From NCBI GenBank assembly GCA_041659405.1, contig JBAZYK010000006.1, positions 1-32,000 on the forward strand: a stretch of DNA of 32,000 nucleotides. Direction: 5' to 3'. Made by a program: the position numbers and the translations under genes. The notes beneath the pieces are model-generated. The model was not told where the DNA came from and ran no database searches. It saw nothing but the letters and a program-made list of their open reading frames with translations. Shown piece by piece: positions 1-29,388 of this stretch (the stretch's first letter is position 1; every line of letters starts with the position of its first letter). Origin of the DNA: Candidatus Altimarinota bacterium (lineage in GTDB: Bacteria > Patescibacteriota > Gracilibacteria > UBA1369).

Positions 1-2
1 TG

Positions 3-42
3 GAGGGAATGGTGATGATTTAGTCATCTTTCATCATCCCTC
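3..42 (-). terminator. Imperfect hairpin immediately downstream of the PAS/HisKA ORF (candidate end of the operon)
   Basis: Arms gaggga(3-8)/tccctc(37-42) and tgatga(13-18)/tcatca(31-36), with a 12-nt loop and a 4-nt bulge. The window edge hides whether a T-run follows on the minus strand. Confidence 0.25.
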
Positions 43-55
43 TTTTTGTTGTGGC

Positions 56-1168
56 TTAAAACCTGTTTTTTCTCTTTCCCTCAATATCAAATCCGTCTCG
101 CACTCTCGAAATCTTGGAAAGGGGTGTATCAAAATTATGACCCATTTCAATTCTGGAAAGATTCAACAAATCGCTTACCAGACGAATTGAGCGCTCATTA
201 CTGACAATAATTCCATGGACATAGTCTCGTTGTTCTTCATTTAATTTATGCTGTTTATTTTTACTTAGTAATTCGGCAAACCATTTTATGGCTGTTAGCG
301 GCTCACGCAATTGATGCGATGCCAAAGAGATAAACTCCGATTTCATGCGATCAAGTTCCCGGAGTTTTGTAATATCATGTTCCGTCCCAACAAAAAACTC
401 CACATTGCGTTTACTGTCCAAGACCGGAGTAATAACAATTTCCGCATCATATAATTCACCATTTTTCCTTTTATTCTGAACCTCCCCGCGAAAGACCTTT
501 TTGTCCTTATAAATGGTATTCCACATGTCCTTATAGAATTTTTTAGGCATATTTCCTCCCCATAATTTACCGGAAGATTTCCCAATCATTTCTTTTGGAT
601 CGTAACCCGTAACCACCTTTACACCTTTATTGGCATACAAAATTTTATCATCCGGATCTGTAATAATCAGATGAGTCGAGGCCTCTACAACCATTTTGAA
701 TTTCTTAAGTTCCTTGGCCAGATTTTTGGAAACAGATTTTGCTCTTCCCATCTGCTCCTCAAATTCTTCACGTTTACCAACATCTTCAAAAGCAAGAAAA
801 ATGGATTCCTGATGATCAGAACTGCAAATTATTTTAACGGCATTCAATAAAATAGTTTGCTTTCCAATTCGCGGAAAATCAGCCTCTATTTTAAAATCAC
901 AAAAGAAAGAATTTTTAGCCAAAATTTCCTCCAATAATTTTCTTAACTTTGGAATATTCCACTGTTTATCATTAAGCTGATAAATACATTTATCCAATAC
1001 TTCCTTCGCTTTAACTTTAAAAAATCGATAAAAAGCATTATTGGCCATCCTTACATTCAAATCCTGGTCCAAAACAAGCAAAGGCTCATGAATTGAATTT
1101 ATAATTTCGCCAACGTGTTCAGGGAAAGCCAATGAAGTTTTTTTTGAGTTTTTATGATTTGTATTCAT
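56..1168 (-). CDS. PAS-PAS-HisKA sensor protein, histidine-kinase-like but without a HATPase_c catalytic domain
   Basis: 370-aa ORF. The first PAS-like segment reads EPLLVLDQDLNVRMANNAFYRFF...QWNIPKLRKLLEEIL. The second reads THLIITDPDDKILYANKGVKVVTGYDPKEMIGK...GTEHDITKLREL. The H-box is SEFISLASHQLREPLTAIKWFAELL and is followed by LLNLSRIEMG. The ORF stops (TAA, 56-58) shortly after the dimerisation helix. Confidence 0.8.
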   Translation of the reverse strand: MNTNHKNSKKTSLAFPEHVGEIINSIHEPLLVLDQDLNVRMANNAFYRFFKVKAKEVLDKCIYQLNDKQWNIPKLRKLLEEILAKNSFFCDFKIEADFPRIGKQTILLNAVKIICSSDHQESIFLAFEDVGKREEFEEQMGRAKSVSKNLAKELKKFKMVVEASTHLIITDPDDKILYANKGVKVVTGYDPKEMIGKSSGKLWGGNMPKKFYKDMWNTIYKDKKVFRGEVQNKRKNGELYDAEIVITPVLDSKRNVEFFVGTEHDITKLRELDRMKSEFISLASHQLREPLTAIKWFAELLSKNKQHKLNEEQRDYVHGIIVSNERSIRLVSDLLNLSRIEMGHNFDTPLSKISRVRDGFDIEGKRKNRF

Positions 1169-1196
1169 GGGAAAGTTATTAAAGTTTAAATCTGTA

Positions 1197-4100
1197 TCAC
1201 GCAGATTTAAACTTTTTCCTCATTCTATAAAGCAAAAACATTCCAACCAGAATGACCACAACCGTAATCAGGGTTGAATACAGATTCAGGTAATAATAAG
1301 CCATTACCCAGAAGTTTTTATTAACGGTAAAAGTTTTAATGGCACTTGGTAAACTTTTCACCTTGGCAATTGGGTCAAGCGCTACGGCAAAAATGGAATG
1401 TTCACCGGGAGTCAGTTCCACATTACTTTGCAAATGATCCAAATTCCAAATTCCGTTACCATCCGCCTTTACCCTATAAACTAAAGCCTGATCACTATGA
1501 AGATAGAGAACCACTTCCTGATTTGGTAAAGCGCGTCCACTGAACTTAATCACATTCGCGGTTGAAGTTTCCGTAGTTGCTCCATTTTGGATTGAAACTA
1601 TCTGTGGTTGAGGAATATTTGGCAGCACAGTTGCCTCAGCCGCCTGGCCAATTGTAACTATTGCCGGTATAGGCAAAGGAGCTCCCGGGGCAATGCCACC
1701 AACAAGCGTTGTAGCGCCACCGGTAGGCCTTGCGGCACCAGGCAAAGCAGGTCCGCCCACCGCAGCTGCTCCCGTTAAACCAGCTGGAGCAACCACACGA
1801 TTTACATCTAACAAATTAACCGCGCTCGCATTTCCGGCAGGATCAACCACCACCAATTCAAACTGATGTTTTCCAAGAGCAAGGGTAGCGCCAGAAGGAA
1901 GATTGAAAGTCCAATTGCCAATTTCATTGGTTGCAGTGGTAAATTTAGTTTTCTTGTCCACGGTAATTTGAACTGTGGAATATGGTTCCGCAAAACCATT
2001 TAAAGTAGGTGTATCAGTTGAAATATTTTCATTTTCCGCAGGGTTAGCCACACTTGGTAAACCCGGAGGAGTTAAATCAATCAGCAAAGGCATTCCATTG
2101 GAATTTGCACTTGGATTATTGAACGAATCTACAGCTTTAACAGTCAAAATATGTTGACCTTCCGTAAAGGTGAAAGTCTGTCCAAATCTGCCATTGGCAT
2201 CAGCCAAAGCGGTAAAATAATCAACAAAAGTTCCATTATCATAAAGAATTATTTTGGCATTTGAGACAGCTACACCGGAAACATTCACGCTGGTTTTATT
2301 GGTTGGAGTCGCAAGACGATCCAGTACCGGAACATTCAATAAAGATGCGTTGAAAAGTACTGCAGGAGTTCCACCACCACCACTAACAACCGGCGTTGGA
2401 GTAGGTGCTGGAACTTCAAATAGATTAATAGATACAACCGTCGCTTCATTGCCATATTTATCCACAGCCCAAATTTTCACAAAATAATTATTGGTCAAAG
2501 GAATCCCTGTAATTGTAGTTATGGAAGTCAAAACATCACTCAAAGTTGGATCTTCCGTCGTGCTCCATTTTGTAGCAGTACCGATTCGCGCATCAACGTC
2601 AGTTTGGCTTGTCCCATGCCATAATTCGTAATGATCAAAATTACTCTCGGTCACAGAACCTGCCCAGTTTAAAGTTGCCGCAGTTGTAGTCGAAGAAAAT
2701 TTCGTTAGAGATGTAAGCCCAACCGGAGCTAAAGTATCTACCGCAAAATCGGTTGATTCAAAGACGCTGGAGTTTCCAAAACTGTCCGTAGCCTGTAAAC
2801 GAACACGGGCATTGGCTATTTCCGTAGTTGCCAAATCAACAGCAGGATTCCACGAAATTGCTTTACCGGCGCCGGCCGTTTGTCCGCTGCCAAAATTTCC
2901 GGCAAGTGTTGACGTTGCTACAGTCCAGGTTGTCCCGCCATTTTTAGAAATTTCCGGAGTGACTGTAATGTTAGAAGACGCATCATCGGCCAAATCATAA
3001 GCGATTGAAACCGCATTGTTTGCCCCCAAAGTTTGAGTGGCAATTAACGCACTCACAACCGGAGCCTTGGTATCGATTGCAAAATCAGCCGAATTGGCAA
3101 AAACACCCTGGTTTCCAAAATAATCCTTGGCCTTAACTCTGACTTTCATATTAGTTTTATGTTGAGCGCTAAAATCAGTTCCGGCGTCCCAGGTAAACGT
3201 TTTCGCACCGGTAGTAATACCCGTTCCAATTGCTCCGGTTACCGTTGTTGCCGGAACCGCCCAGGTAGTTCCACCATCCGCAGAAAACTCAGCCTCAACC
3301 AAAAATCCGGCCGGAGTGTTATCCGCCAAAGTATAGTTAACCTCAACATTGTCTGTTCCAGCTGTTTGAGCCGCAGTTACGCCGCTAACCACCGGCAATT
3401 TTGTATCGACTGAAAAATCATCGGAAGCCACAAAAGTACCAATGTTATCATAGGCATCGGTTCCACGGATTTTTATCTTCATTGTAGTACTTTCCTGATT
3501 TGCGAAATCAATTCCCGCATTCCAGGTTATATTTTTATTTGTGCCGATTGAGATGCCGGAACCAACATCACCAGCCATTGAAGTTGTGGCAACAGTGTAA
3601 GTTGCGCCACTGTCATCAGAAATCAAAGCCTCAACCGAATTGTTCGTACCGGAATTATCCACCATATCATAATGAATCGTTAAACCATCTGTCCCCGGAA
3701 TCTGCCCGATATTAATATTTGAAATTACCGGACCAAGCGTATCAACCGAAAAAGCGGAGGAAGTAGCCAAATTACCTGATGTTAAACCATCATTCGCCTG
3801 CAATCTTACATAAACGGTTGAACTGCCAAAGTTTGCCAAATCCGCCGCCAAATCCCAGGCAAAAACAAAAGAATGACCGGAAGAAGTAAACGCCAAACCA
3901 CTTATACCATCAGCTCCCACTCCCGCTTTTTGAGTCATGGTATGCCAGATGGAATTATCGGTGGAATATTCATAAGAGGTTAGATCATTTGTGTCATTTT
4001 GAGCGTCCGTTCCGGAGTAATTAACTAAAACATAACTTCTATTCAAAGGCTGCGCAACACTTGTAATACTTATAACCGGAGCAGTATTTGCAACAGCACC

Positions 4101-7100
4101 AACATTGGAGAAACTGCTTTCACTGCCGGATTGATGTGCAGTATCAGCCGGATTTCGTGATTTAACTTCAAAACTATATCGAGCCACCGGAGAAGTTAGA
4201 CCGGTCACGGTAATTTTTCCGCTTACACCGGAGCTATTTCCCCATTGCCCCGCTGCCGTTCCCAAAGTTTTCCAGACTGCAGCTGTATCCAATGAACCAT
4301 TTGTCTGCACATATTTACCGGTTGTAGTTTCAAAAATCGCATAAGGAACAGTACTCGATTCCCCTGTATGAGGATTTACCGTTACATCCACACTTGTATT
4401 TTGAGGATTGCCAACGGTTGGTGCATCCGGTTTATAAGGTTTAACGTATTTTTTAGTAGTTGAAGGCGCAGTATTTTCATTCGTAGCAGTTTTTCCATAA
4501 AGATCGCCCTCCGTTATTTTAACTTTGGAAACATAATCACTACCGGTAAGAGTTTGGCCGGCAGCCGTAGCCTGTGCCGGAGGAGTTGCGGTATTACCGG
4601 TTCCAGCCGTACTGGCGCCATAAGCCAAACCATTCAAAGCAAGCGCAAAATCATTGGTGCCCGGATTAGATTCGGTAAACGAACCTTCAATCAAAGCGGT
4701 TGTATCACCGGCATTTGGTTGAGTTGAAAGATCAGCCGCCGCATTGGTTGCAGGCGCCAAAGTATCCAAATTAAACGCCGTGGAAGAAACATTGTCACTA
4801 ACATTATTAAATCCATCCGTGCCACGCAATCTAACCATCATGGTTGATTTTTGGTGGTTTGTATAATCCGTTCCTGCATTCCAGGTTATGGTTTTACCGT
4901 TTCCGGCAGGTACCGCAGCGCCAAGATCACCGGCCGCAGTGATATGGGCAACAACCCAGGTACTTCCGGAATTATCGGAAATATCCATGGCAATTGCAGA
5001 TGTAGCGCTATCGGCAAGATCATAGGTAATCACAAAATTTTGTGATCCCAAAGTTTGAACAGCACCAATATTGGTAATAACCGGACCTTTGGTATCAACC
5101 GCAAACGAAGATGGAGTCGAAACACCGGCATTCCCAAACTGATCGGTCGCACTAACTTTAATTAAAAGATTTTGTTCATGATTTGGATAATCCGTTGCCG
5201 CATTCCAGGTAACAGTTTTATTAACAGCCGGAGTCACTCCGGTTCCCACAGCACCGGTTGCACTTGTTACCGGCACTATCCAAGTCACACCATTATCATT
5301 TGAAACACTGATTGAAACCGTGGAATTATTGGCATCAACAAGGTCATAAGCAATCGCGATCGTTCCCGCCCCGGCATTTTGGGAAGCCGTTACGTTACTA
5401 ACAACCGGAGCCTTTGTATCAACTTCAAAATTACCGGAAACCGTAAAATCACCTGCGTTACTATAAGAATCAGTCGCCTTCAAACGAAGTTTCATGATCG
5501 AAACTTCCTGATTTGCAAAATCGGTTCCGGCATTCCAGGTTATGGTTTTTCCGCTACCAGGAACAACACCTGCATTAATATCGCCACTCGCTGTGGTTAT
5601 TGGAACAACCCAATCACCTCCATCGTTGGCAGAAATATTAAGCTCAACATTAGAAACAGAAACATCACCAAGAGTATAATGAATCGTCACAGTGCCGGAA
5701 CCATTTGTAAGCATGCCAGCTGTTATGGCAGAAATAACCGGTTTTTTAGTATCAATTGTAAAAGAACTGGAAACGGCAGCAGCACCACTGGTATGACCAT
5801 CATTAGCCTGAAGACGTACATAAACCGTGGCATCTTCCGCATTGGCAAGATCCGTTCCAACGTCCCATTTAAAATGATGCAAAACTCCGGAGTCGCTAAA
5901 CGCAAGACCGGTCACTCCCTCACTTCCAACTCCACTTTTTTCGGTCATTGTGGTCCAGGTACTATTATCGGTTGAATATTTATATTGAACCAGACTGGAA
6001 GTTTCACTTTCCAAATCGATACCGTTGTAACTTATATCAACTATTTTAGAACCATCTGTACTTTGTGAAATCGAATTAAATGTAATGTGCGGCGATTGAT
6101 TGGCCGAAGAAGCTCCACTGGAAAGTGCACTTTCACTGGAAGGCGCAAATCCTGTATCACTTGGATTGCGTGACTTGACCTCAAATCCGTAAGTATAGGA
6201 ATGTCTGGTCAATCCGCTCACATTAACTTTGCCGGAAACACCCGAGCCATTTCCCCACTGTCCGGAGCCCGTTCCCAAAGTTTGCCAAACCGGACTCGCC
6301 CCTATGGTTCCATTACCCTGCACATATTCAGAAAGTGTAGCTTCAAAAATCGCATATTCCAGGGAATCAGCCTCTGCCGGATTTTTGTTGACTGTTACAT
6401 CAACCGTCCCAACTCCGGGATTATCAACCGTTGGAAGCGCAGGTGTATAAGGTTTAACATATTTTAACGCCGCAGATGGAGAAGTATTTTCATTGGTTAT
6501 CGATTGACCATATTTATCGGTGTGCGTAATTTTCACCTTGGAAATATAATCGTTACCTTTAAGCGTAACTCCCGTAGCCGTTGCCTGATTTGTCGGAGTT
6601 GCGGTATTTGTAGTACCCGCCGTACTTGATCCGTAACTTCCAACATCAACCGCCACATAAAAAGCATTGGTGCTTGGATTGGCTTCTGTAAAAGATCCAC
6701 CAATTAAAGCAATTGTATCACCTGCACTTGGTTGAGTTTGTAACTCGGCAGCTGCATTAACCGCCGGAGCCAAAGTATCCAAAGCAAAATTGGTTGAATC
6801 TACATCGCCCGAAGCATTATTAAAAATATCCGTTGCCTGAATACGAACCTGCATTGTTCCAAGTGTCTGATTTGGGAAATCGGCTGCCGCATTCCAGGTT
6901 ATAGTTTTTCCTGTTCCAGAAGCCACACTAGCCCCCAAAGCTCCGGTTGCGGACGTGGTTGGCACCACCCAACTTGATCCGCCATTACTGGAAATTTGCA
7001 ATTGAACGGTTGAATTATTTTGATCCGCCAAATCGTAAGTAATATTTACAGTCGTTCCACCCAAAGGCTGAGTTCCAGCCACCGTGGTCACTCTTGGAGC

Positions 7101-10100
7101 TTTAGTATCCAAAGAAAAAGCGGAAGAAGTGGTATTGGAAACATTGATATGTTTATCTGTAGCCGTAATTTTGATCTTCATGTCCGCATGTTCCTGATTA
7201 TCAAAATCGGTCCCGGCATTCCAGGTAATTGTTTTGCCTGCACCCGGCACAGTAGCGGCCCCAAATGCCCCTGCCGCAGATGTAATTGGCACCACCCAAG
7301 TTGAACCGCCATCGCTTGAAATAGCCAAGGCCGTATCAACATTTCCGTTATCTTCAGAAACGTCATAATGGAATGTAAATGTTTTTGCCACAGCATCCTG
7401 AACAGCGGTAACATTGGAAACCACCGGCGCTTTGGTATCCGCCTCAAAAGCGGACGAAGAACTATTCACGCCCTGATTGCCAAATGTATCAGTCGCCCTA
7501 ACCCGCACCATCATCTGAGTCGTATATTCTCCGTCATAATCACTGGCAACATTCCAGGTAATGGTTTTCCCCGCACCCGGAGTGATTCCCGCGCCAATTG
7601 CACCGGTTGCAGAAGCATGAGGAACAGTCCAGGTTGAGCCGCCATCAGCGGAAACATCCATTTGAACATTACTATTATTGCCATCAGTAAGAGTATAAAC
7701 AACCGTCACAGTTGTTGAAGTATCGCTCATTGACGCGGATGTAACAGCTGTAACCGGAACCACGTTATCAATAGCAAAAGCCGAAGAAGTGGCCACCGCA
7801 CTATCCAAAAGTGAATCATTTGATTTCAGTCTGATCAAAACGCTTGAATTTTCCACCCCCGCCAAATCGGTCCCGGAATCCCAGACAAATTTATAATTGC
7901 TACCGGTTGGCAAGAACACCAGATTGATTGTGCTGTTGGACCCAACTCCACTTTTTTCCGTCATTGTAGCCCAGATGCCACCACCATTTGTGGAATATTG
8001 AAACGAAGCCAAACTATTAATATCGCCCTGACCGTCGGTACCGGTATAATTAATGTTTACATATTTTGTACCATCGGTAGTTTGCGCAATACTCCCAAGA
8101 GTAACAGTTGGCGCAGTATTGGTAATTTGCGAAGGTGAAGACAAAGCCGATTCAGAAGACGCAGCATGCCCACCGTCATTTGGATTACGAGATTTTACCT
8201 TAAAAATAAACGTGGAAATATGTGGAGTAAGTCCGGTTACATTCACCTTGCCGGTAACTCCCGTCCCATTTCCCCATTGACCCGCTCCCGTACCCAAAGT
8301 TTGCCAAATCGCACCAGCTCCAAGCGCACCATTTGCCTGAACATATTGACTGGTAGATGTTTCAAAAATGGCATATTGCAGACCACTGGCCTCACTTGCA
8401 TTTGGAACAACCGTTAAATTTAAATTATTGGTTATTGGATTTGTAAGCGTAGGCGCCTGTGGAGTGTAAGGCTTAACATATTTGTAAGTCGCAGATGGTG
8501 AAGTATTTTCATTAGTCCCCGATTGCCCATATAAATCAGCATGCACGATTTTTACTTTTGAAATGTAATCGTTACCTTTAAGTGTTGTTCCGGCAACAGT
8601 ACTTTGATTTGATGGCGTAGCCGTATTCGGAGTACCAACCGTTCCCGCGCCATAATCCGCACCACTCACTCCAACAGAAAAAGTATTTGTACTTGGATTG
8701 GCTTCTGTAAAAGATCCACCAATTAAAACCGCAGAATCACCGGCATTTGGTTGAGCAAACAAATTGGCTATAGCATTGGTTGCCGGCGCCAAAGTATCAA
8801 GCGCAAAACTGATAGACGCAACAAAAACTCCCTGATTTAAAAATTTATCTTTTGCTCTAACCCTAACCTGAATATTGCTTTGTTGATGAGCCGGATAATC
8901 CGTCCCCGCATTCCAGGTTATGGTGTTCCCGATTGCCGCAGTCACTGCAGCACCAACTGCACCGGTAGCGGACGTAACTGGCACTGTCCAGGTCACTCCG
9001 GAATCACCGGAAACTGCCAATTCAACCAGCAAATTATCGGTAGTGTTATCTGTAAGATCATAAGTTATTTGCACCGAAGTAGTGCCCAAAGTTTCCGTAG
9101 CAACAACATTGGCAACCACCGGATTCACATAATCAACCGCAAAAGCGGAAGAAGTCGCAACCGCACTATCAAGAAAGCCATCATTAGCCTTAAGACGAAC
9201 CAGCACAGTCGCATTATAAAAACTTCCAATATCCGCAAGCGCATTCCAGACAAAAGTATGCGCAACTCCCGCCGCAGAAGTAGTAAGCCCAGTAATTCCG
9301 CTATGAGCAGGATCGGAAGTCGCAGCCGTCATTGTCTGCCAGGTCGTTCCATCAACCGAATATTCAGAAGCATTCAAATTGGAAACATCACTTTCGGGAT
9401 CCTGCAAATTATATGGCAAATAAACCAGGCCGGTAGAAGTCCCCTGGGCCGGTGTAAGGCTCGCAACCACCGGAGGATTATCCTGGGTATAATTGATCGA
9501 AACATTATTCAAAATTACCTGTTGGCTGCCATTACCGGACAAAAACGCCTTCCACCTGATTTTATTGGTAGTTTTGGTAAAAGTGGCGATATTCGTATTA
9601 ACAATGGCTGCGGTATTATAGTTGCCCGCTCCGGCTGTAGCCCAAGCCGTACCATTCCAATATTGCCAGGTTACCCCATCATCACTGGAAAGTTGATAAT
9701 TAATTTCTCCACCATTTTTAGTCGCCGTTTCCGCAAACGAATCCCAGCTTAAAACCTTTGCCGGATTCAAAGAAGTCGTCGGAGTTATGGTTGGACTGCC
9801 ACTATCGTAAACATGTGAGGTATTTGACCAGTTTAAAACAACATTATCAAAACCGGAAGTATAGGCATCACTTTCATCGGTAGTTAAATTATTAGTTGCA
9901 TAAGCGGCAAATTTTAAATAGTAAGTACCGGCCGCCCCCAATTTTGTGTGAACATCAATATTGGATACACTTGCCCAGGGAGTCGTTGCACTAATTTCTC
10001 CGCTATCCCAAACTTGCGTTCCCAATACCGGATCAGTATTTGCAGAATCAACAAAAGCGTAAAGATGATAGGTCTGTGGAGCAGTCGGTGAAGTAAAAAC

Positions 10101-10835
10101 TGTACTCGACCAATCGAGCGAAACTGTTGCCGTAGCCGGGTTTGCAACCGTAGTCACAAATGATTGTCTCCGATAACCTGCTACCGTTAAATTCTTTCTT
10201 GAAGCAGTAAGCGCAATACGAACGTAAGCATCGGGATTCCCACCGGAAGCTTGACGATTACTGGTTGCATTTGTACTAGGAGGTTGCAACCAGTTCGGAA
10301 AATTCCAACCGGTTAAATTGCTATCAAATCCAGCATTGGTTGTGGCTCCACTGAAGGTTACTCCCAAATCTTTTAATTGCGCATTCCCACCAGTTAATTC
10401 AATCTTTGCAGAATCAAATGTAAAGTTTGCAGGAGTGGTAAAAACCCAACTTTGTGTACTGGCAAACAGGGCCTGCGCGCCCAAAATAAAAAAGGAAACC
10501 ATGCCAATAAAGAAAATTTTAAGTCCATACAAAGCGGCCGCACCGGCTGCTGTAAAAATACCAATCTTGCGCCTGAGAATAAAAAAATGAAGGTGTTCCT
10601 TCTTTTTACCATCATGCGGAAAAATAAAGCCAAGCTGCTGAAGATCTTTCGGCGATACTATAAAAAACAAAGGCAAAGAAACCAGGAATGATCCCAGCTC
10701 AACCAAAAACAACAAAACAAAGTAAGGCAACGCCCTAAAAACGCCTTTTGATTCAAGTATTTTCTTTTTGATCGTAAAAATAAACCCCGAAAGATGAAAG
10801 AAAAAATTTAATAATTTTGTTTTAAATGCTGCCAT
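1197..10835 (-). CDS. Giant (3,212 aa) repeat-rich, membrane-anchored cell-surface protein (adhesin or envelope-structure-like)
   Basis: Uninterrupted 9,639-nt ORF. N-terminal hydrophobic segments lie at about aa 35-60 and 91-125, followed by a ~345-aa beta-rich N-terminal region. The core has 14 domains of ~110 aa, each with one S-x-D-x-G-x-T-W (Asp-box-like) motif and one W-[ND]-x-x-x-D motif. Three ~230-aa L modules (LDTLAP...KYVKPYTP...VKSRNP) separate the domain blocks. The C-terminal part has an FN3-like segment (HYELWHG...YFVKIWAVDKYGN), three Ig-like segments (e.g. GQHILTVKAVDSFNN, GKHQFELVVVDPAGN, GEHSIFAVALDP) and a Pro/Gly/Ala linker. It ends in a hydrophobic anchor followed by RMRKKFKSA. 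No LPXTG motif was seen. Confidence 0.9.
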   Translation of the reverse strand: MAAFKTKLLNFFFHLSGFIFTIKKKILESKGVFRALPYFVLLFLVELGSFLVSLPLFFIVSPKDLQQLGFIFPHDGKKKEHLHFFILRRKIGIFTAAGAAALYGLKIFFIGMVSFFILGAQALFASTQSWVFTTPANFTFDSAKIELTGGNAQLKDLGVTFSGATTNAGFDSNLTGWNFPNWLQPPSTNATSNRQASGGNPDAYVRIALTASRKNLTVAGYRRQSFVTTVANPATATVSLDWSSTVFTSPTAPQTYHLYAFVDSANTDPVLGTQVWDSGEISATTPWASVSNIDVHTKLGAAGTYYLKFAAYATNNLTTDESDAYTSGFDNVVLNWSNTSHVYDSGSPTITPTTSLNPAKVLSWDSFAETATKNGGEINYQLSSDDGVTWQYWNGTAWATAGAGNYNTAAIVNTNIATFTKTTNKIRWKAFLSGNGSQQVILNNVSINYTQDNPPVVASLTPAQGTSTGLVYLPYNLQDPESDVSNLNASEYSVDGTTWQTMTAATSDPAHSGITGLTTSAAGVAHTFVWNALADIGSFYNATVLVRLKANDGFLDSAVATSSAFAVDYVNPVVANVVATETLGTTSVQITYDLTDNTTDNLLVELAVSGDSGVTWTVPVTSATGAVGAAVTAAIGNTITWNAGTDYPAHQQSNIQVRVRAKDKFLNQGVFVASISFALDTLAPATNAIANLFAQPNAGDSAVLIGGSFTEANPSTNTFSVGVSGADYGAGTVGTPNTATPSNQSTVAGTTLKGNDYISKVKIVHADLYGQSGTNENTSPSATYKYVKPYTPQAPTLTNPITNNLNLTVVPNASEASGLQYAIFETSTSQYVQANGALGAGAIWQTLGTGAGQWGNGTGVTGKVNVTGLTPHISTFIFKVKSRNPNDGGHAASSESALSSPSQITNTAPTVTLGSIAQTTDGTKYVNINYTGTDGQGDINSLASFQYSTNGGGIWATMTEKSGVGSNSTINLVFLPTGSNYKFVWDSGTDLAGVENSSVLIRLKSNDSLLDSAVATSSAFAIDNVVPVTAVTSASMSDTSTTVTVVYTLTDGNNSNVQMDVSADGGSTWTVPHASATGAIGAGITPGAGKTITWNVASDYDGEYTTQMMVRVRATDTFGNQGVNSSSSAFEADTKAPVVSNVTAVQDAVAKTFTFHYDVSEDNGNVDTALAISSDGGSTWVVPITSAAGAFGAATVPGAGKTITWNAGTDFDNQEHADMKIKITATDKHINVSNTTSSAFSLDTKAPRVTTVAGTQPLGGTTVNITYDLADQNNSTVQLQISSNGGSSWVVPTTSATGALGASVASGTGKTITWNAAADFPNQTLGTMQVRIQATDIFNNASGDVDSTNFALDTLAPAVNAAAELQTQPSAGDTIALIGGSFTEANPSTNAFYVAVDVGSYGSSTAGTTNTATPTNQATATGVTLKGNDYISKVKITHTDKYGQSITNENTSPSAALKYVKPYTPALPTVDNPGVGTVDVTVNKNPAEADSLEYAIFEATLSEYVQGNGTIGASPVWQTLGTGSGQWGNGSGVSGKVNVSGLTRHSYTYGFEVKSRNPSDTGFAPSSESALSSGASSANQSPHITFNSISQSTDGSKIVDISYNGIDLESETSSLVQYKYSTDNSTWTTMTEKSGVGSEGVTGLAFSDSGVLHHFKWDVGTDLANAEDATVYVRLQANDGHTSGAAAVSSSFTIDTKKPVISAITAGMLTNGSGTVTIHYTLGDVSVSNVELNISANDGGDWVVPITTASGDINAGVVPGSGKTITWNAGTDFANQEVSIMKLRLKATDSYSNAGDFTVSGNFEVDTKAPVVSNVTASQNAGAGTIAIAYDLVDANNSTVSISVSNDNGVTWIVPVTSATGAVGTGVTPAVNKTVTWNAATDYPNHEQNLLIKVSATDQFGNAGVSTPSSFAVDTKGPVITNIGAVQTLGSQNFVITYDLADSATSAIAMDISDNSGSTWVVAHITAAGDLGAAVPAGNGKTITWNAGTDYTNHQKSTMMVRLRGTDGFNNVSDNVSSTAFNLDTLAPATNAAADLSTQPNAGDTTALIEGSFTESNPGTNDFALALNGLAYGASTAGTGNTATPPAQATAAGQTLTGSDYVSKVKITEGDLYGKTATNENTAPSTTKKYVKPYKPDAPTVGNPQNTSVDVTVNPHTGESSTVPYAIFETTTGKYVQTNGSLDTAAVWKTLGTAAGQWGNSSGVSGKITVTGLTSPVARYSFEVKSRNPADTAHQSGSESSFSNVGAVANTAPVISITSVAQPLNRSYVLVNYSGTDAQNDTNDLTSYEYSTDNSIWHTMTQKAGVGADGISGLAFTSSGHSFVFAWDLAADLANFGSSTVYVRLQANDGLTSGNLATSSAFSVDTLGPVISNINIGQIPGTDGLTIHYDMVDNSGTNNSVEALISDDSGATYTVATTSMAGDVGSGISIGTNKNITWNAGIDFANQESTTMKIKIRGTDAYDNIGTFVASDDFSVDTKLPVVSGVTAAQTAGTDNVEVNYTLADNTPAGFLVEAEFSADGGTTWAVPATTVTGAIGTGITTGAKTFTWDAGTDFSAQHKTNMKVRVKAKDYFGNQGVFANSADFAIDTKAPVVSALIATQTLGANNAVSIAYDLADDASSNITVTPEISKNGGTTWTVATSTLAGNFGSGQTAGAGKAISWNPAVDLATTEIANARVRLQATDSFGNSSVFESTDFAVDTLAPVGLTSLTKFSSTTTAATLNWAGSVTESNFDHYELWHGTSQTDVDARIGTATKWSTTEDPTLSDVLTSITTITGIPLTNNYFVKIWAVDKYGNEATVVSINLFEVPAPTPTPVVSGGGGTPAVLFNASLLNVPVLDRLATPTNKTSVNVSGVAVSNAKIILYDNGTFVDYFTALADANGRFGQTFTFTEGQHILTVKAVDSFNNPSANSNGMPLLIDLTPPGLPSVANPAENENISTDTPTLNGFAEPYSTVQITVDKKTKFTTATNEIGNWTFNLPSGATLALGKHQFELVVVDPAGNASAVNLLDVNRVVAPAGLTGAAAVGGPALPGAARPTGGATTLVGGIAPGAPLPIPAIVTIGQAAEATVLPNIPQPQIVSIQNGATTETSTANVIKFSGRALPNQEVVLYLHSDQALVYRVKADGNGIWNLDHLQSNVELTPGEHSIFAVALDPIAKVKSLPSAIKTFTVNKNFWVMAYYYLNLYSTLITVVVILVGMFLLYRMRKKFKSA
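2742..4769 (-). repeat. Super-repeat unit 3 (2,028 nt / 676 aa): L module plus B-A-A-A domain block, the most diverged copy
   Basis: Begins at LDTLAPATNA (Leu codon 4767-4769). KYVKPYKP is encoded at ~4434-4445. Trp landmarks are at 3855, 3522, 3189 and 2850. It ends at FAVDTLAPVGL (~2714-2760). Confidence 0.85.
4770..6782 (-). repeat. Super-repeat unit 2 (2,013 nt / 671 aa): L module plus B-A-A-A domain block
   Basis: Begins at LDTLAPAVNA (Leu codon 6780-6782). KYVKPYTP is encoded at ~6447-6458. Trp landmarks are at 5865, 5535, 5205 and 4881. It shares a 36-nt identical tract with unit 1 (6673-6708 = 8692-8727). Confidence 0.85.
6783..8801 (-). repeat. Super-repeat unit 1 (2,019 nt / 673 aa): L module plus B-A-A-A domain block
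   Basis: Begins at LDTLAPATNA (Leu codon 8799-8801). KYVKPYTP is encoded at ~8466-8477. Trp landmarks are at 7881, 7554, 7221 and 6894. Confidence 0.85.
8802..9475 (-). repeat. Partial first block of the domain array (one B-type plus one A-type Asp-box domain)
   Basis: The array starts at TQDNPPVVA (~9463-9488). Conserved Trp codons of the W-[ND]-x-x-x-D motif are at 9246-9248 (FVWNALADIG) and 8913-8915 (ITWNAGTDY). Confidence 0.8.
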
Positions 10836-10853
10836 CTATTTAAAATTAAACAG

Positions 10854-11675
10854 CTAAAAAATTAGAAAGGTGGAGAATAAACCAATCGCAATAATAAGCA
10901 CCAATGACCAGTTAGCCAGGTTGTCCACGTTTTGGATCAAGACATCAAGCCACAAAGAATTTAGCTTAAAATATCGTTCCTCCGAAAGCTGACTACGCTC
11001 ACCTGTTTTTGGATTAAAACTGTAAAGCCATAAAGAATGATTACCCTCATTCAACTTAAATTCAGCCTGCGAATGTTCAATTTGCCATTGGCCCTTGTCA
11101 TCGGCCTGACCATAATAAATGGCATCCTGCTGGGCGGAAATCATTAAAACCACCGTCACTAAAGGTTGCGCAGTTCCCGTAAACACAAAATTACCACTGG
11201 AATTTATCTCCAGCTTTTTAAAAATCGGAGCAATAATAGCATTGTTGATTTGAGCTGTCTGAATTCCGGTTTCCGTAGAAAGCAATTGTTCATTTTGCAC
11301 AGACGTAGGTGATAACGATGAAACACGATAAAGTGGCAGCGGACCATACAAATATGGCACCGTCACAATCAACAACAATTTTATTACCCAAATAGCCAAA
11401 ACCACACCAAGACCGGCAAGTGTCACAACACGCCTCAAATTATAATTCAGGGTAACTTTTTCATAAGTTCCATGTTCCTTCATGTAAGCCACGGCCTTAT
11501 CGGGCTTGATACTCAAATAAAAAGGCAAAGAAACCAGCGCCAAAAACGTTTCCAACAAAAAAAGTATGAAAATATTAACAATAACTTTTAAACCGGTTTG
11601 TTTAATTATTTTCTGCCTTATTTCGTAAATCCGGTTCGAGAGTTTTAATGAAATATTTAGCCATTGTGTTTTCAT
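10854..11675 (-). CDS. 273-aa membrane protein, a miniature paralogue of the giant protein (shared N-terminal membrane module, one Ig-like domain, C-terminal anchor)
   Basis: N-terminal IFILFLLETFLALVSLPFYLSIKP aligns with the giant protein's YFVLLFLVELGSFLVSLPLFFIVSP. A second hydrophobic segment follows LRR in both proteins. C-terminal FTGTAQPLVTVVLMISAQQDAIYYGQADDKGQWQIEHSQAEFKLNEGNHSLW aligns with the giant protein's last Ig-like segment. It ends in the hydrophobic stretch WSLVLIIAIGLFSTFLIF. Confidence 0.8.
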   Translation of the reverse strand: MKTQWLNISLKLSNRIYEIRQKIIKQTGLKVIVNIFILFLLETFLALVSLPFYLSIKPDKAVAYMKEHGTYEKVTLNYNLRRVVTLAGLGVVLAIWVIKLLLIVTVPYLYGPLPLYRVSSLSPTSVQNEQLLSTETGIQTAQINNAIIAPIFKKLEINSSGNFVFTGTAQPLVTVVLMISAQQDAIYYGQADDKGQWQIEHSQAEFKLNEGNHSLWLYSFNPKTGERSQLSEERYFKLNSLWLDVLIQNVDNLANWSLVLIIAIGLFSTFLIF

Positions 11676-11679
11676 TTTT

Positions 11680-12054
11680 TTAAATTAATTTCTTAATTTT
11701 TTTTGCCAACACAGATAAATCCGTATCAGCCTTAATGAAATAATCAATTGCCCCAAGCGCTTTAGCCTTTCCTATATCAGCTTCATCACCAAGGTTGGAC
11801 AAAATAACCACCGGAATTTGTTTTAATGTTGAGTTTGATTTTAAATTTTTTAATAAAGCAAAACCATCCATTACCGGAAGCAGCAAATCCAGCAAAATAA
11901 TGTCCGGTTTTATTCTTTGGGCGATTTCCAGCGCGCTCTGACCATCACCGGCGGTCGCGATGGTATTTTCACCATGCAACAGCACATACAAAGCCCGCAA
12001 CAAGGGTTCCTCATCTTCAACAATCAAAATTATATGTTTCTTTTTTGTATTCAT
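11680..12054 (-). CDS. Stand-alone response-regulator receiver protein (CheY-like, no output domain)
   Basis: 124 aa. It has the acidic pair in IVEDEE, the phospho-acceptor context DIILLDLLLPVMDG, ILSNLG (S/T position) and FIKAD (conserved Lys). Confidence 0.9.
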   Translation of the reverse strand: MNTKKKHIILIVEDEEPLLRALYVLLHGENTIATAGDGQSALEIAQRIKPDIILLDLLLPVMDGFALLKNLKSNSTLKQIPVVILSNLGDEADIGKAKALGAIDYFIKADTDLSVLAKKIKKLI

Positions 12055-12057
12055 ATT

Positions 12058-12447
12058 TTAGTTTTTCAGTAATGAATTGAGAATAAAATCAACAATTTTT
12101 TTCAACTCGATATCCGCCTTGGTAAAATGCTTTTCCGCTCCCAATACTTGAGTGGATTTTATATCCGCAACCGCATCCAGATTTGAAAGCACCACCACGG
12201 AGATTTTCCTGGTTTCTTTTGCTGATTTTAATTGCTTCAAAACCGCAAAACCATCAAGACCGGGCAAAACCAGATCAAGCAAAATCGCATCGGGACCAAA
12301 TTTCTTGGCCGATTCCAAAACCTTAAAACCGTTATCCACTACCGAAACTTCAACATCTTTTTCCAAAAAACTTTTACTTAAAATCTGCGATAAAAGAGCA
12401 TCGTCCTCAACAATCAATAATTTCTTTTTTGTTTTTTTATTGAACAT
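12058..12447 (-). CDS. Stand-alone response-regulator receiver protein (CheY-like, no output domain), tandem paralogue of the next gene
   Basis: 129 aa with IVEDD, DAILLDLVLPGLDG, VLSNLD and FTKAD. Only 3 nt separate it from the downstream receiver gene. Confidence 0.9.
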   Translation of the reverse strand: MFNKKTKKKLLIVEDDALLSQILSKSFLEKDVEVSVVDNGFKVLESAKKFGPDAILLDLVLPGLDGFAVLKQLKSAKETRKISVVVLSNLDAVADIKSTQVLGAEKHFTKADIELKKIVDFILNSLLKN

Positions 12448-12487
12448 GATTTTATGTTCTTAGTAAGCCATTTAGACCACTCCCGTA

Positions 12488-12496
12488 ATTATACCA
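12488..12496 (-). promoter_or_regulatory. Candidate extended -10 promoter element for the receiver/giant-protein unit
   Basis: The minus strand reads TGGTATAAT (the TGnTATAAT consensus). Its downstream edge is 40 nt upstream of the ATG at 12447. No convincing -35 is present (GGTAAA at the 17-nt spacing). Confidence 0.4.
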
Positions 12497-13593: not shown

Positions 13594-14706
13594 ATGAAAA
13601 AAACCAAATTCAGCCAGCTTTCACCAAATCTAAAAAAATTGATTATTACCAAAGGTGGAGCCGGAAAAAACGTTGTTGATGGAACATTGTCCCAATATGT
13701 AAAAAAGAACAGCACACCGGTTTCCGCATTTGCTGAAAGAACCTTGAATCACTGCAACGGCGGCTCAACTTTACAGGCCGCAATGTGGCTGAAGAATCAC
13801 CTGGATAAAGGCGGCAAACTGGTTGTTACAATTGCCGGCGCACTAAGTTCTTTTCAGGTTGGAGTAATGCTCGCAGACCTAATCCGTGCCGGAAAAGTGC
13901 ATCTTATTTCTGCAACCGGCGCCAATCATGAAGAGTCATATTACCGCTATGTCGCGCATTCCCATTACGCTTACATTCCGCGCTATACCGAATTAACTCC
14001 GGAGCAGGAAGCCGAACTTCGTGATGCCGGTCTTCGCCGCATTACAGACACGTTTTTGCCTGAAGATGAAAGCGTCCGCATTATGGAACCTCATCTTTTA
14101 AAAATGTGGAAAGACGCCATGAAAAACAAAAAACGCTATTTTCCACACGAATATTTCCGCAAACTTTTTGCCGAAGGATTGATTAAACCGGATCCCGAGG
14201 CCAATCCAAACGATTGCTGGGCTTTTGCAGCCTACAAAAAAAACATTCCAATTGTGATCCCGGGTTTTGAAGATTCCACCATGGGCAACATTTTTGCGAG
14301 CTACACTTATAACGGCAAATATCGCAAAGATAAAAGCACAATCCTGGATCAAAACGTTATGAAAAGTGGTTTGGAATATTTTACTTTTCTTTATGACTGG
14401 TACATGGAAGCCGCAAAAGACACTCCAATCGCCTTCTTGCAATTAGGTGGAGGTATTTCCGCTGATTTCCCGATTTGCGTTGTTCCTTCACTCAAACACG
14501 ACCTGCAACTTCACGGCAAAATTCGCGACTGGGCCGGATTCATTGAAATCGGCTCCTCACCAATGTCCTACGGATCCTATTCCGGCGCAGGTGGCAAAGA
14601 AAAAATCACCTGGGACAAACTTTCCACCAGCAGCTACTATCAAATCATTCAAAGCGATGTGACGGTTGCTTTCCCTTGGATTGCCGCGATTTTGCTTGGA
14701 TTGTAG
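13594..14706 (+). CDS. Deoxyhypusine synthase-like protein
   Basis: 370 aa. TIAGALSSFQVGVMLADLIRAGKVHLISATGANHEES matches the DHS core pattern. LQLGGGISADFP corresponds to the GGG nucleotide-binding loop. GGKEKITWDKLS aligns with the SWGK catalytic-Lys motif. Confidence 0.65.
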   Translation: MKKTKFSQLSPNLKKLIITKGGAGKNVVDGTLSQYVKKNSTPVSAFAERTLNHCNGGSTLQAAMWLKNHLDKGGKLVVTIAGALSSFQVGVMLADLIRAGKVHLISATGANHEESYYRYVAHSHYAYIPRYTELTPEQEAELRDAGLRRITDTFLPEDESVRIMEPHLLKMWKDAMKNKKRYFPHEYFRKLFAEGLIKPDPEANPNDCWAFAAYKKNIPIVIPGFEDSTMGNIFASYTYNGKYRKDKSTILDQNVMKSGLEYFTFLYDWYMEAAKDTPIAFLQLGGGISADFPICVVPSLKHDLQLHGKIRDWAGFIEIGSSPMSYGSYSGAGGKEKITWDKLSTSSYYQIIQSDVTVAFPWIAAILLGL

Positions 14707-14777
14707 GAAGTTTCATCAAACATTGCGCATTCCTAAAAATATGGTATAGTAGAGATCAGTATTTTTTCTCTATTGTC

Positions 14778-15293
14778 ATGCGATTGGCCGAATTGTTAAC
14801 AAACGTTCATCCGGATCAACCTGATTTCACCCCATATTTAAGACCAGGAACTCATCCTCCTCTTAAAACGGAAGCACTAAAATTAGAAGCTTTGGTAGGT
14901 GAACAACGTAAAGCTCTAAGAACTGTTGTAGATGGAATTGGAACCATTGTGATTAGATATAAAGGATCAGAAGGTGCCGTAACCAGCCTTGATGAAGACC
15001 ACAACGGAGAAACATGGACAATCAAACAAGTCCAGGGAGCATCTTCAAGAAGATCATATCGCACAGCCACAGGATTACACTGGCCAAAATTATTGAGCGA
15101 AAGAATTGCTACATATGCTAATCATCCGGAAGCTCAAGCCCGCCACATCACCATGCCGCCATTACATGGAATCACAAATATCGACGGAGCAAGATCTCAA
15201 CATATTGACAGTACCTATGCTGCCGCTCGCACCACCTTAGGCATGCGCTATTCCGAAGAACACGGACTTTACATTGTGGACATCAAAAAATAG
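14778..15293 (+). CDS. Hypothetical protein (171 aa)
   Basis: The ORF track starts at 14676, which overlaps the DHS-like gene's 3' end. I prefer the ATG at 14778 (MRLAELLTNV...). No recognisable motifs. Confidence 0.5.
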   Translation: MRLAELLTNVHPDQPDFTPYLRPGTHPPLKTEALKLEALVGEQRKALRTVVDGIGTIVIRYKGSEGAVTSLDEDHNGETWTIKQVQGASSRRSYRTATGLHWPKLLSERIATYANHPEAQARHITMPPLHGITNIDGARSQHIDSTYAAARTTLGMRYSEEHGLYIVDIKK

Positions 15294-19730: not shown

Positions 19731-20321
19731 TTAAAGTTGAGCCGTTTTTGGATCTACTTTTACAGCAAAAAGCACTTTGCCATTTTGATCACGAATTCGG
19801 ACCTCAGTATCTTTAACATAAATCAAAGATCTACCCGGCACGTCATTTTTTAGACTGCCAGACAAAAATTGTTGACCGTTAGAAGTAATTGGCTGAGACG
19901 CAATCTCAAATCCAGGATATGTACTTCCTCCATCTTCGGTCACATCACCCAAAATGACCAATTCTAGCGGCCCACCACAGGAATCTTTTATTTCCTGAGT
20001 GAGACCCGAAACATCACAATCCAAAGTAATTCTAGTTCCTTTAACCGCATCTCCCAGATCTTCGCTTTCCATTTTAAATTCATTAAATGTCAATTTAAGA
20101 TTTGATTTCTTTTCAGCTGTTTGACACGCATTATCTTCATAAACATCAGAATTGGCTGCAGGACCGCAAGCTGCCGCCGCCATTGAAGTTGCCGCAGCAA
20201 TTGCCGTTACTGCTTTTCTTAAACGGGAAGGTCCACGCAGCACAGCGGAAGGACGCAATGATGGTCCTGACGATGTTGCAGCACGTGGCGAATCCGAAGA
20301 CTTTGGTGTGTTTTCCGACAT
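19731..20321 (-). CDS. Hypothetical secreted protein, candidate lipoprotein
   Basis: RLRKAVTAIAAATSMAAAAC-GP resembles a signal peptide with a lipobox Cys. The ATG ORF carries about 35 S/P/R-rich residues in front of it. An in-frame GTG at 20241-20243 (VLRGPSRLRK...) would give a conventional-length signal peptide. Confidence 0.5.
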   Translation of the reverse strand: MSENTPKSSDSPRAATSSGPSLRPSAVLRGPSRLRKAVTAIAAATSMAAAACGPAANSDVYEDNACQTAEKKSNLKLTFNEFKMESEDLGDAVKGTRITLDCDVSGLTQEIKDSCGGPLELVILGDVTEDGGSTYPGFEIASQPITSNGQQFLSGSLKNDVPGRSLIYVKDTEVRIRDQNGKVLFAVKVDPKTAQL

Positions 20322-25179: not shown

Positions 25180-25244
25180 ACACAACCGAAAAACGCATAA
25201 AATCCTCACAAGAAATTCACACAATTTAACCTCACAATTTTCTT

Positions 25245-26651: not shown

Positions 26652-26752
26652 AAAAACGCACTTCACTAAAAAGCTACTCCAGCCAAACCTGCGACATTAC
26701 AAACCAAAAATCGCACACTCAACCAACAATCGCACCTTCAAACCAACACACC

Positions 26753-28240: not shown

Positions 28241-28252
28241 TTTAAAATCCAT

Positions 28253-29333: not shown

Positions 29334-29388
29334 TATCGATTAAGTTAAGTATTTCCCGAAATACCATTTTTAAATAAACAGGGAAATA

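Follow-up and report, generated by a model that had tools for sequence, protein, structure and literature searches.

A conserved Patescibacteria cassette of receivers, a histidine kinase and a giant surface protein, with its kinase gene cut by an insertion sequence

Introduction

How might signalling proteins that lack an output domain be connected to a giant surface protein encoded in the same gene cluster, and why does the kinase of this cluster appear to have no catalytic domain? Both questions are raised by a locus at positions 56 to 12,496 of the window, the whole 32,000-nt stretch of contig JBAZYK010000006.1 (Candidatus Altimarinota bacterium) that was analysed. An earlier note, made from the letters alone, read the locus as a five-gene operon that couples phosphorelay-type parts to an envelope protein pair.

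Patescibacteria (CPR) account for a substantial part of bacterial diversity. To our knowledge, all cultivated members are obligate episymbionts, and the means by which they recognize and attach to their hosts are largely unknown. Their giant surface proteins have been noted in general terms only (PMC8080830). The arrangement was not recognized as a described system when it was first noticed, and our search of the literature likewise gave no published description.

Results

Gene cluster and expression signals

Five ORFs run head to tail on the minus strand, separated by gaps of 3, 4, 18 and 28 nt; coordinates and domain content were re-derived and agree with the layout originally proposed. The first two genes encode the stand-alone receivers RR1 (129 aa, 12058-12447; Pfam Response_reg at residues 11-111, E = 2.5e-17) and RR2 (124 aa, 11680-12054; Response_reg, E = 3.2e-20). 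These are followed by a 273-aa membrane protein (10854-11675) that belongs to no Pfam or NCBIfam family and is referred to, together with its relatives, as M27x. The giant surface protein (3,212 aa, 1197-10835; Pfam Big_13) comes next, and a 370-aa PAS-PAS-HisKA fusion (56-1168; Pfam PAS, PAS and HisKA) completes the series.

An extended -10 box had been reported ahead of the cluster, and a candidate is indeed present: the motif TGGTATAAT, read directly from the sequence at 12496-12488 (minus strand), lies 41 nt 5' of the RR1 gene. Promoter and terminator scans return fewer sites than in shuffled sequence, and the candidate is not among them because its -35 element is weak. An alternative genetic code is ruled out for this MAG, which is labelled Gracilibacteria: TGA terminates 6 of the 23 genes, and table 11 gives contiguous ORFs.

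Conservation of the cassette

The order RR1, RR2, 273-aa protein and giant protein recurs in all 16 loci of related Patescibacteria species in which the region is visible, and also in metagenome loci L002-L005. A shorter cassette, with one receiver, a protein of ~265 aa, a surface protein of 0.9-1.4 kaa and a kinase, occurs in lineages that are 21-26% identical. Among distant M27x members (21-30% identity), an RR2-type receiver is encoded directly upstream in five of seven lineages; two distant lineages (L025 and L033/34) have no receiver at this position. In every lineage whose contig reaches far enough (6/6), M27x adjoins a large partner protein that shares its N-terminal module, encoded either downstream or divergently. 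The gaps between RR2 and M27x and between the large gene and the kinase are mostly below 50 nt, or the genes overlap.

The kinase gene directly follows the large gene in L008, L018, L020, L026 and L032. One ORF intervenes in L006, the kinase lies upstream in L009, and L002 has a kinase of the same subfamily 8 kb upstream. In L007 and L015 the ~750 nt that follow the giant gene contain no kinase, and an Rfam search of this ORF-free stretch found nothing. Every complete cassette kinase carries HATPase_c (L006, L008, L020, L026 and L032), as does the L009 protein, and the domain is present in nearly all of the at least 120 kinase homologues among the matches listed. The cassette kinases have a common DHp signature, SHQLRTPLTGIKWF. 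Their sensor parts vary, with 0, 1, 2 or 5 PAS domains or a dCache-HAMP-PAS arrangement; the DHp/CA core and the placement downstream of the large gene are retained despite this variation. The L026 kinase is a 249-aa protein consisting of HisKA and HATPase_c only, with neither a sensor domain nor a TM segment. Pfam detects no Hpt domain in any cassette protein.

Gene-order comparison establishes the cluster as a conserved Patescibacteria cassette made up, in order, of one or more stand-alone CheY-like receivers, M27x, a large surface protein that varies greatly and a histidine kinase. The proposed linkage between signalling and envelope genes is not accidental, since all related loci keep it and it persists between lineages with as little as 21% identity.

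Receivers

Alignment confirms that the acidic pocket, the LLDL phospho-Asp context, the Ser position and the Lys are intact in both RR1 and RR2, as the earlier note had stated, and the phospho-acceptor Asp, acidic pocket, S/T and Lys are conserved across 20 aligned cassette receivers. A third receiver is found in L008 and L020. The view that the receivers have no DNA-binding or enzymatic output holds, since Pfam returns nothing besides Response_reg for RR1 and RR2 and no such output domain in any cassette receiver, the third ones included. An RR1-type orthologue is present in 16 of 16 close loci with upstream sequence and is missing from the single-receiver cassettes, and the single receivers of L026, L027, L030 and L032 score higher against RR2 than against RR1. 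Judged by this distribution, RR1 is a lineage-specific extra copy and RR2 is the conserved cassette receiver, whose gene always sits immediately 5' of the ~270-aa gene.

M27x and the giant surface protein

M27x contains helices at residues 2-25, 29-55 and 75-110. An Ig-like beta-sandwich occupies residues 150-238, and a TM segment (242-272) lies at the C-terminal end. The first AF2 model, from 5 sequences, was poor (pLDDT 60.7), and the model from 59 sequences reaches a pLDDT of 82. In a PDB fold search the Ig part of the model matches Bap, SiiE and FN3 domains, with no match outside the Ig domain; scanning 59 family members against Pfam and NCBIfam yields weak Ig-like matches only. The family comprises ~70 full-length clusters among the best 150 matches, and a third homology search, with a diverse alignment as query, added one new protein among the matches listed. 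The suspected N-terminal membrane module common to the 273-aa protein and the giant is borne out (28% identity, E = 5e-6), and the two proteins also have a C-terminal Ig-like domain in common (31% identity, E = 1e-8), which in both forms an anchor with a TM segment.

The giant protein consists of the N-terminal membrane module, super-repeats, FN3-like and Big_13 domains, a terminal Ig domain, a TM segment and a basic tail. There are three super-repeats of ~673 aa, built of ~110-aa beta-sandwich units; self-BLAST for internal repeats returned the self match alone, and motif spacing, used instead, gives ~20 copies of the unit. Big_13 is the only Pfam domain (32.8 bits, cut-off 27), a Reelin_subrepeat-B match falling under its cut-off, and the sequence matches PDB 7dm0 (Bap C region) at 3.9e-7. 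The protein has no Cys and is rich in T/A/S/G/V/N, and its orthologues range from 1,651 to 4,674 aa. Neither M27x nor the giant has an LP.[TSA]G motif; a hydrophobic segment and a basic tail are found there. On the evidence of its Big_13/Bap, SiiE-like Ig and laminin-G domains and the lack of Cys, the large protein looks extracellular and adhesin-like.

Coupling of the signalling proteins to the surface proteins

The receivers have no output domain and in almost all lineages the receiver gene is packed directly against that of M27x, and action is therefore expected to be post-translational. We infer that the output or the input of the kinase-receiver pair is most likely the surface-protein pair itself. 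In the version that we favor, the kinase of an intact cassette would phosphorylate the receiver or receivers, and the phosphorylated receiver would then bind the membrane module common to M27x and the large protein, at its short, conserved cytoplasmic face. Such binding would alter how the adhesin-like surface protein is assembled, clustered or retained. This picture, of a conserved cassette with an IS-cut kinase here, in which the phospho-receiver of intact copies acts post-translationally on the membrane pair, seems to us about evenly balanced between right and wrong. Helix 2 of the N-terminal module carries positive charge on both flanks, so that the cytoplasm-facing conserved residues, and with them the orientation of the module, are ambiguous. 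The two lineages without a receiver directly upstream (L025, L033/34) also count against it, as do the loci with no nearby kinase (L007, L015) or with one 8 kb away (L002), and no receiver-M27x fusion is found among the longer M27x family members. Finally, the sensor-less L026 kinase is more easily reconciled with a signal that passes from the membrane pair to the kinase than with one in the opposite direction.

This kinase, which needs input from a partner, speaks for outside-in contact sensing, in which the surface protein and its small paralogue would sense, for example, host contact or tension and control the soluble kinase from the cytoplasmic side, with the receivers acting elsewhere. 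Cassette kinase sensors vary freely around a constant DHp/CA core and a constant position after the large gene, and the stop of the large gene and the start of the kinase are 3-41 nt apart or overlap, both of which suit such control. However, most of the kinases have PAS sensors of their own, no receiver target is visible, and the tight attachment of the receiver gene to the M27x gene is left unexplained; we regard outside-in sensing as rather doubtful. Receiver targets under that arrangement could be, for instance, pili, division or metabolism.

The genes may instead be linked by co-expression only, through shared transcription or local synteny, with the two-component genes acting on unrelated targets or through an unlinked transcription factor. 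Stand-alone receivers are generic parts, the adjacent receiver is missing in two distant lineages, and the kinase varies in position (upstream in L009, 8 kb off in L002, none within 750 nt in L007 and L015), as co-expression would allow. It does not sit well with the DHp signature common to the cassette kinases, nor with a four-gene order that is kept at 21-26% M27x identity amid neighbors that differ on both sides, which is hard to account for without functional coupling. We consider mere co-expression improbable and retain receiver action on the membrane pair as the preferred reading.

An insertion sequence in the kinase gene

The fifth ORF has a HisKA domain (8.1e-18, residues 275-343) with the H-box SHQLREPLT and His285, and Pfam finds no HATPase_c in it. 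Its native part, as defined by Pfam and by alignment to full-length kinases, covers codons 1-347 (128-1168, minus strand). The alignments run to ..RIEMGHNFD, and homology then ends exactly at the boundary of an insertion sequence (IS). Window positions 126 to 1 (the IS left end, 1-126, minus strand) match the left end of a 1,333-bp element on contig L023 with 100% identity; the element is bounded by 22-nt inverted repeats and encodes a 387-aa DDE transposase. The terminal repeats match at 21 of 22 positions, with the left copy at window 126-105, and the A of the transposase ATG falls on window position 1. The element supplies the last 23 codons of the fusion ORF (348-370) and its stop codon. 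HATPase_c is missing because the IS inserted at codon 347/348, and the linker is lost along with the entire HATPase_c domain (~165 aa). The hairpin at 3-42, which folds well (z = -3.2) and had been taken to close the operon, lies within the IS left end (42-3) and belongs to the element rather than to the cluster. It has no T-run and stands just 5' of the transposase ATG, and it is rejected as an operon terminator.

The transposase matches DDE_Tnp_1 at 8.3e-13 (49 bits, cut-off 23). The element resembles IS4/IS701 insertion sequences in its single DDE_Tnp_1 ORF, 22-nt TIR, 1.3-kb length and multi-copy behavior in assemblies, but all of its NCBIfam IS4/IS701 matches score far under the curated (equivalog) cut-offs, so it is a distant member. 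A second, diverged copy has identical ends and a different flank, marking an independent site. Because of the IS, the source contig breaks off 140 nt inside the element, a length equal to k-1 for k141. The right junction in this genome lies past the contig end; neither it nor the 3' half of the kinase was found, the transposase being present on contigs of 1.3-1.7 kb only. By nucleotide identity, insertion of the IS after codon 347 accounts for the kinase-less look, the stop codon, the hairpin and the contig end.

These results change the reading of the kinase. The Pfam scan recovers the Response_reg, PAS and HisKA domains and the absence of HATPase_c noted before, but not a kinase-less design: the claim that none of the parts has an ATP-binding kinase domain describes an IS-truncated gene, and the complete kinases at this position all carry HATPase_c. 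The two-component assignment therefore holds for the intact cassette and not for the disrupted copy here. The circuit is probably disabled or locked in this population, with the kinase remnant a PAS-DHp stump that lacks its catalytic domain.

The junction lies at a contig end beside a repeat, as it would in an assembly chimera from a genome with an intact kinase. Yet the contig passes the junction for exactly k-1 = 140 nt with no branching at that point, and the break matches the edge of the terminal inverted repeat to the base, as in a true insertion. The 370-aa fusion protein is moreover on record from three contigs (NCBI, JGI, ENA), although these records may copy one assembly, and we judge a chimera very improbable. 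A relay that is kinase-less by design, with the PAS-PAS-DHp protein as phosphotransferase or phosphatase, could appeal to the intact His285 and DHp without a CA domain and, weakly, to the same three records, but it is hardly credible and as a design feature is refuted by the IS junction at the truncation point: IS sequence accounts for the final 23 codons, the stop and what lies downstream, HATPase_c is carried by every homologous cassette kinase and by almost all of the at least 120 listed homologues, and Hpt occurs nowhere in the cassette. The phosphorelay-type framing does not survive either, as there is no Hpt or Spo0B-like part and the DHp-only look is the product of IS truncation.

Discussion

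Implications

The cassette ties giant surface proteins to a complete kinase/receiver pair without transcriptional output, and this tie is conserved to ~21% identity. It offers a testable entry point to surface proteins under signal control, to the binding partner of the receiver and to the role of the ~270-aa family. Tentatively, it may be a dedicated contact-signalling device of host-dependent Patescibacteria, in which an adhesin and its miniature paralogue are read and/or set by phospho-receivers and a cognate kinase, though we would not call this likely. If it were so, host attachment and intracellular phosphorylation would be coupled without a transcription factor, the receiver target would be of a new class, and the membrane module would define a new family. 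There is also a practical lesson: where a domain seems to be missing near a contig end, a mobile-element junction should be checked for first.

Comparison with known systems

The giant protein is closest to the Bap/SiiE adhesins, as indicated by Big_13 (32.8 bits), the 7dm0 match, the superposition of the M27x Ig domain on Bap/SiiE BIg domains and the tandem ~110-aa units. It differs from them in having neither LPXTG nor a type I secretion signal, and two of its parts, the N-terminal helical membrane module and the C-terminal TM anchor, set the present family apart.

In the Lap system of Pseudomonas, the giant adhesin LapA is governed by the inside-out receptor LapD and the protease LapG. The surface state of this giant repeat adhesin is thus set post-translationally by a co-encoded cytoplasmic signalling input, and the analogy to the cassette, where a giant repeat adhesin is likewise encoded together with a signalling input, is a functional one. 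Kinases that take their input from accessory membrane proteins are also familiar, as in BceS with BceAB and LiaS with LiaF; these are membrane-embedded and work through DNA-binding regulators. The 249-aa L026 kinase resembles them in having little or no sensor of its own and in being encoded beside membrane proteins that may supply the signal, whereas most cassette kinases are soluble and no DNA-binding domain is present in the receivers. Dvh is the Lap variant of Desulfovibrio (PMC13090378). No GGDEF, EAL, LapD-like, LapG-type protease or type I secretion genes are found in the cassette or its flanks; furthermore, the organism here is monoderm-like, and its adhesin is fixed in the membrane at either end by TM segments of its own.

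For the receivers, the nearest parallels are the stand-alone receivers of classical two-component pairs that work through protein-protein contact, namely CheY-FliM, DivK and EpsW-EpsZ, with which the cassette has in common a HisKA+HATPase_c kinase (in intact copies), full phospho-acceptor residues and the absence of a receiver output domain. Unlike CheY-type systems, the cassette contains no chemosensory proteins; CheA, CheW and methyl-accepting chemoreceptors are absent from the window and from the 10-kb flanks of related loci. In all three parallels the partner also differs, the presumed one here being two paralogous surface proteins, each doubly anchored, from a family without a description so far, and not a motor switch or enzyme. 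In EpsW-EpsZ of Myxococcus a stand-alone receiver acts directly on an integral membrane enzyme of envelope biogenesis (PMC12802240), and in the cassette, too, the receiver genes adjoin the gene of an envelope membrane protein.

The five-ORF cluster

The five minus-strand ORFs run head to tail and are separated by gaps of 3, 4, 18 and 28 nt. The first two encode receivers of 129 aa (12447-12058) and 124 aa (12054-11680), in which Pfam detects Response_reg alone. They are followed by the 273-aa membrane protein M27x (11675-10854), which matches no Pfam family, and by the 3,212-aa giant protein (10835-1197), for which Big_13 is the only match. The fifth ORF (370 aa, 1168-56) contains two PAS stretches and HisKA, without HATPase_c. 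The earlier note was accurate on the strand, spacing and domain content of these genes, as judged from the ORF coordinates and the Pfam scan. Alignment bears out its account of the receivers, both of which retain the acidic pocket, the Asp in its LLDL context, the S position and the Lys, and the box claimed to precede the first receiver gene, TGGTATAAT, is present at 12496-12488.

An insertion sequence interrupts the kinase gene

Of the 120 homologues listed for the 370-aa protein, almost all possess HATPase_c; the majority are 350-650 aa in length. The protein aligns with them through ...LLNLSRIEMGHNFD, diverges thereafter and ends 23 residues on. Scanning for exact matches to the region of its stop codon gave a single hit, a 1,333-bp metagenome contig (L023). 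This contig starts with CACCCCTTTCCAAGATTTC and closes with the reverse complement, forming a 22-nt inverted repeat with 21/22 positions matching. It codes for a single 387-aa DDE transposase (DDE_Tnp_1, 8e-13), whose top NCBIfam matches are IS4 and IS701 models, all under their curated cut-offs. L023 (1-1333) is thus a full copy of an IS4/IS701-like insertion sequence, and a second, diverged copy (L035 94-1426) has the same ends and an unrelated flank. The transposase-bearing contigs are all isolated and just 1.3-1.7 kb long, as a collapsed repeat would be.

The window lies at the end of a 110,523-bp MEGAHIT contig (ENA ERZ27249449 k141_167353), which ends just 69 nt past the stop codon of the fifth ORF and exactly 140 nt (k-1) into the insertion sequence. 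Because window positions 126→1 are 100% identical to the left end of L023, with position 1 being the A of the transposase ATG, we place the end of the native kinase sequence after codon 347. By the same match, the insertion sequence supplies codons 348-370 with their TAA stop, and also the hairpin (42-3). The kinase portion missing from the window amounts to ~165 residues, comprising the linker and all of the catalytic domain. Two earlier claims fall with this result. The apparent lack of an ATP-binding kinase domain among the signalling parts is an artefact of the insertion at the contig end, and the hairpin at 3-42, which the earlier note placed after the cluster, is part of the insertion sequence. 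This hairpin is strong (z = -3.2) and lies immediately before the transposase start, where it may limit read-through translation from outside.

Conservation of the cassette

Close relatives of M27x are few. When one genome per species was scanned, the protein turned up in 17 Patescibacteria species. Gene order at these loci was determined by phmmer on six-frame ORFs. The linkage of signalling genes to giant-protein genes, which the earlier note had proposed checking in related genomes, is kept: the order RR1-type receiver, RR2-type receiver, M27x, giant protein on one strand holds in 16/16 loci with upstream and 15/15 with downstream sequence. The giant proteins range from 1,651 to over 3,300 aa, with one of 4,674 aa in L002.

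The 3' end of the giant gene is visible in six loci (L006, L007, L008, L015, L018 and L020). The kinase gene follows directly in three of them: L008 and L020, both 5×PAS-HisKA-HATPase_c, and L018, where the locus end cuts it. Beyond the kinase lie a third stand-alone receiver in L008, and a PAS protein plus third receiver in L020. In L006 one 330-aa ORF precedes the kinase (dCache-HAMP-PAS-HisKA-HATPase_c). Elsewhere, L009 has a complete kinase directly upstream of RR1, and L002 has one of the same DHp subfamily 8 kb upstream. Where other loci carry the kinase gene, L007 and L015 show no ORF over the last ~750 nt before the locus end. These stretches (L007 14012-14750, L015 20382-21177) cover at least 740 nt downstream of the giant gene, with no Rfam match and no ORF >60 aa except, in L015, a 146-aa ORF that starts with GTG and is of doubtful coding value.

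An exhaustive profile search yielded 592 relatives, with ~70 of the best 150 being full-length M27x proteins (255-285 aa), and seven lineages were sampled at 21-30% identity. L026 encodes a receiver, the M27x relative M267, a 909-aa surface protein and a 249-aa kinase of HisKA and HATPase_c alone. L032 has a receiver, M258, a 1,368-aa laminin-G protein, a PAS-HisKA-HATPase_c kinase and a nucleotide cyclase. Two receivers, M273 and a large protein occur in L029, and in L027/L028 the contig stops directly after a receiver and M266. L030/L031 combine a receiver and M274 with a divergently transcribed large protein in two pieces and a more distant kinase. L025 and L033/L034 have M27x and the large protein, without a receiver directly upstream. 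The single receivers of these distant cassettes are RR2-type. In every sampled lineage whose contig continues beyond M27x, its larger neighbour bears the same N-terminal module, and complete neighbours also bear the same C-terminal Ig and TM segments. The invariant core is accordingly the M27x/large-protein pair, which in most lineages is accompanied by an RR2-type receiver and a kinase.

Two distant loci have further features. At L032 9118-10449, an adenylate/guanylate cyclase gene (Guanylate_cyc, 1e-24) comes after the kinase gene and a 52-aa ORF, and could be a downstream output in that lineage. In L030 (6217-9578) and L031 (1-2807), the large-protein gene runs opposite to the receiver-M27x pair and is divided between two overlapping ORFs, a 469-aa ORF bearing the N-terminal module and a 657-aa ORF bearing the C-terminal one; it is separated from a kinase gene by a HEPN/nucleotidyltransferase pair.

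M27x and the giant protein

In the AF2 model of M27x (59 sequences, pLDDT 82), three predicted helices (2-25, 29-55 and 75-110) and a disordered linker lead to an Ig-like sandwich that is modelled with confidence (150-238), and a further helix (242-272) forms the C terminus. Fold comparison superposed the sandwich on Bap, SiiE and FN3 domains and gave no match for the helical part. In the N-terminal module, helix 3 has an invariant Arg-Arg before it and a net-negative region after it, and looks like an N-in/C-out anchor. Both flanks of helix 2 are positively charged, which may mean that this helix is re-entrant or that helix 1 serves as a fourth TM segment.

The giant protein contains three ~673-aa super-repeats built of ~110-aa units, together with FN3-like and Big_13 domains, a terminal Ig domain, a TM segment and a basic tail. 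Its repeats and Ig domains, and the absence of Cys and of an LPXTG motif, fit an extracellular adhesin or envelope fibre.

Source organism and other genes

NCBI labels the source MAG "Candidatus Gracilibacteria". TGA is the stop codon of 6/23 genes, ORFs are intact under table 11, and the cluster relatives are all Magasanikbacteria, Uhrbacteria or unclassified Patescibacteria. On these grounds the organism is a code-11 Patescibacterium, and the label looks wrong. Four third-party MAGs titled 'uncultured Gammaproteobacteria' (L006, L007, L012, L019) carry this cassette, which is specific to Patescibacteria, at 45-49% identity and are probably mis-binned or mislabelled. In the window, the 20 nt upstream of 23 starts are AT-rich, often TTTAA-like, and contain no Shine-Dalgarno-like purine run before any gene, which suggests that translation initiation is independent of SD pairing.

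Metabolism in the window is comparatively rich for a Patescibacterium. A complete oxidative pentose-phosphate block (24526-28951, plus strand) encodes transaldolase, 6-phosphogluconate dehydrogenase, glucose-6-phosphate dehydrogenase and 6-phosphogluconolactonase, with glutamine synthetase (20550-22133) and a PLP enzyme (23183-24187) nearby. The plus strand also carries a bacterial gene of the deoxyhypusine synthase family (13594-14706; Pfam DS, 3.8e-29), overlapped by a 205-aa ORF of no family (14676-15293). ORFs of 123-560 aa at 16269-17951 (+), 19731-20321 (-), 22387-22899 (-) and 28962-30285 (-) have no Pfam match.

Functional interpretation

The cassette is conserved and undescribed, and the finding is real. 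Literature searches turned up only broad comments about giant CPR surface proteins, and nothing that describes the cassette, in agreement with the earlier view that this arrangement is not a described system. It consists of a normal kinase, disabled in the window by the insertion sequence, and stand-alone receivers, genetically tied to two paralogous surface proteins, each of them doubly anchored. The novelty lies in known signalling parts newly arranged around a new membrane-protein family; the signalling chemistry is not new.

None of the cassette signalling parts has a transcriptional output domain, and we infer that the signalling genes are functionally coupled to the surface pair. The phosphorylated receiver would act on the shared membrane module and so exert inside-out control of the adhesin, a mechanism to which we give about an even chance. 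Contact sensing, in which the membrane pair feeds the kinase, is supported by the sensor-less kinase of L026 and seems rather unlikely overall. That the genes are co-expressed and nothing further is improbable. EpsW-EpsZ offers a documented precedent, in which a single-domain receiver has an integral membrane protein involved in envelope biogenesis as its direct target (PMC12802240).
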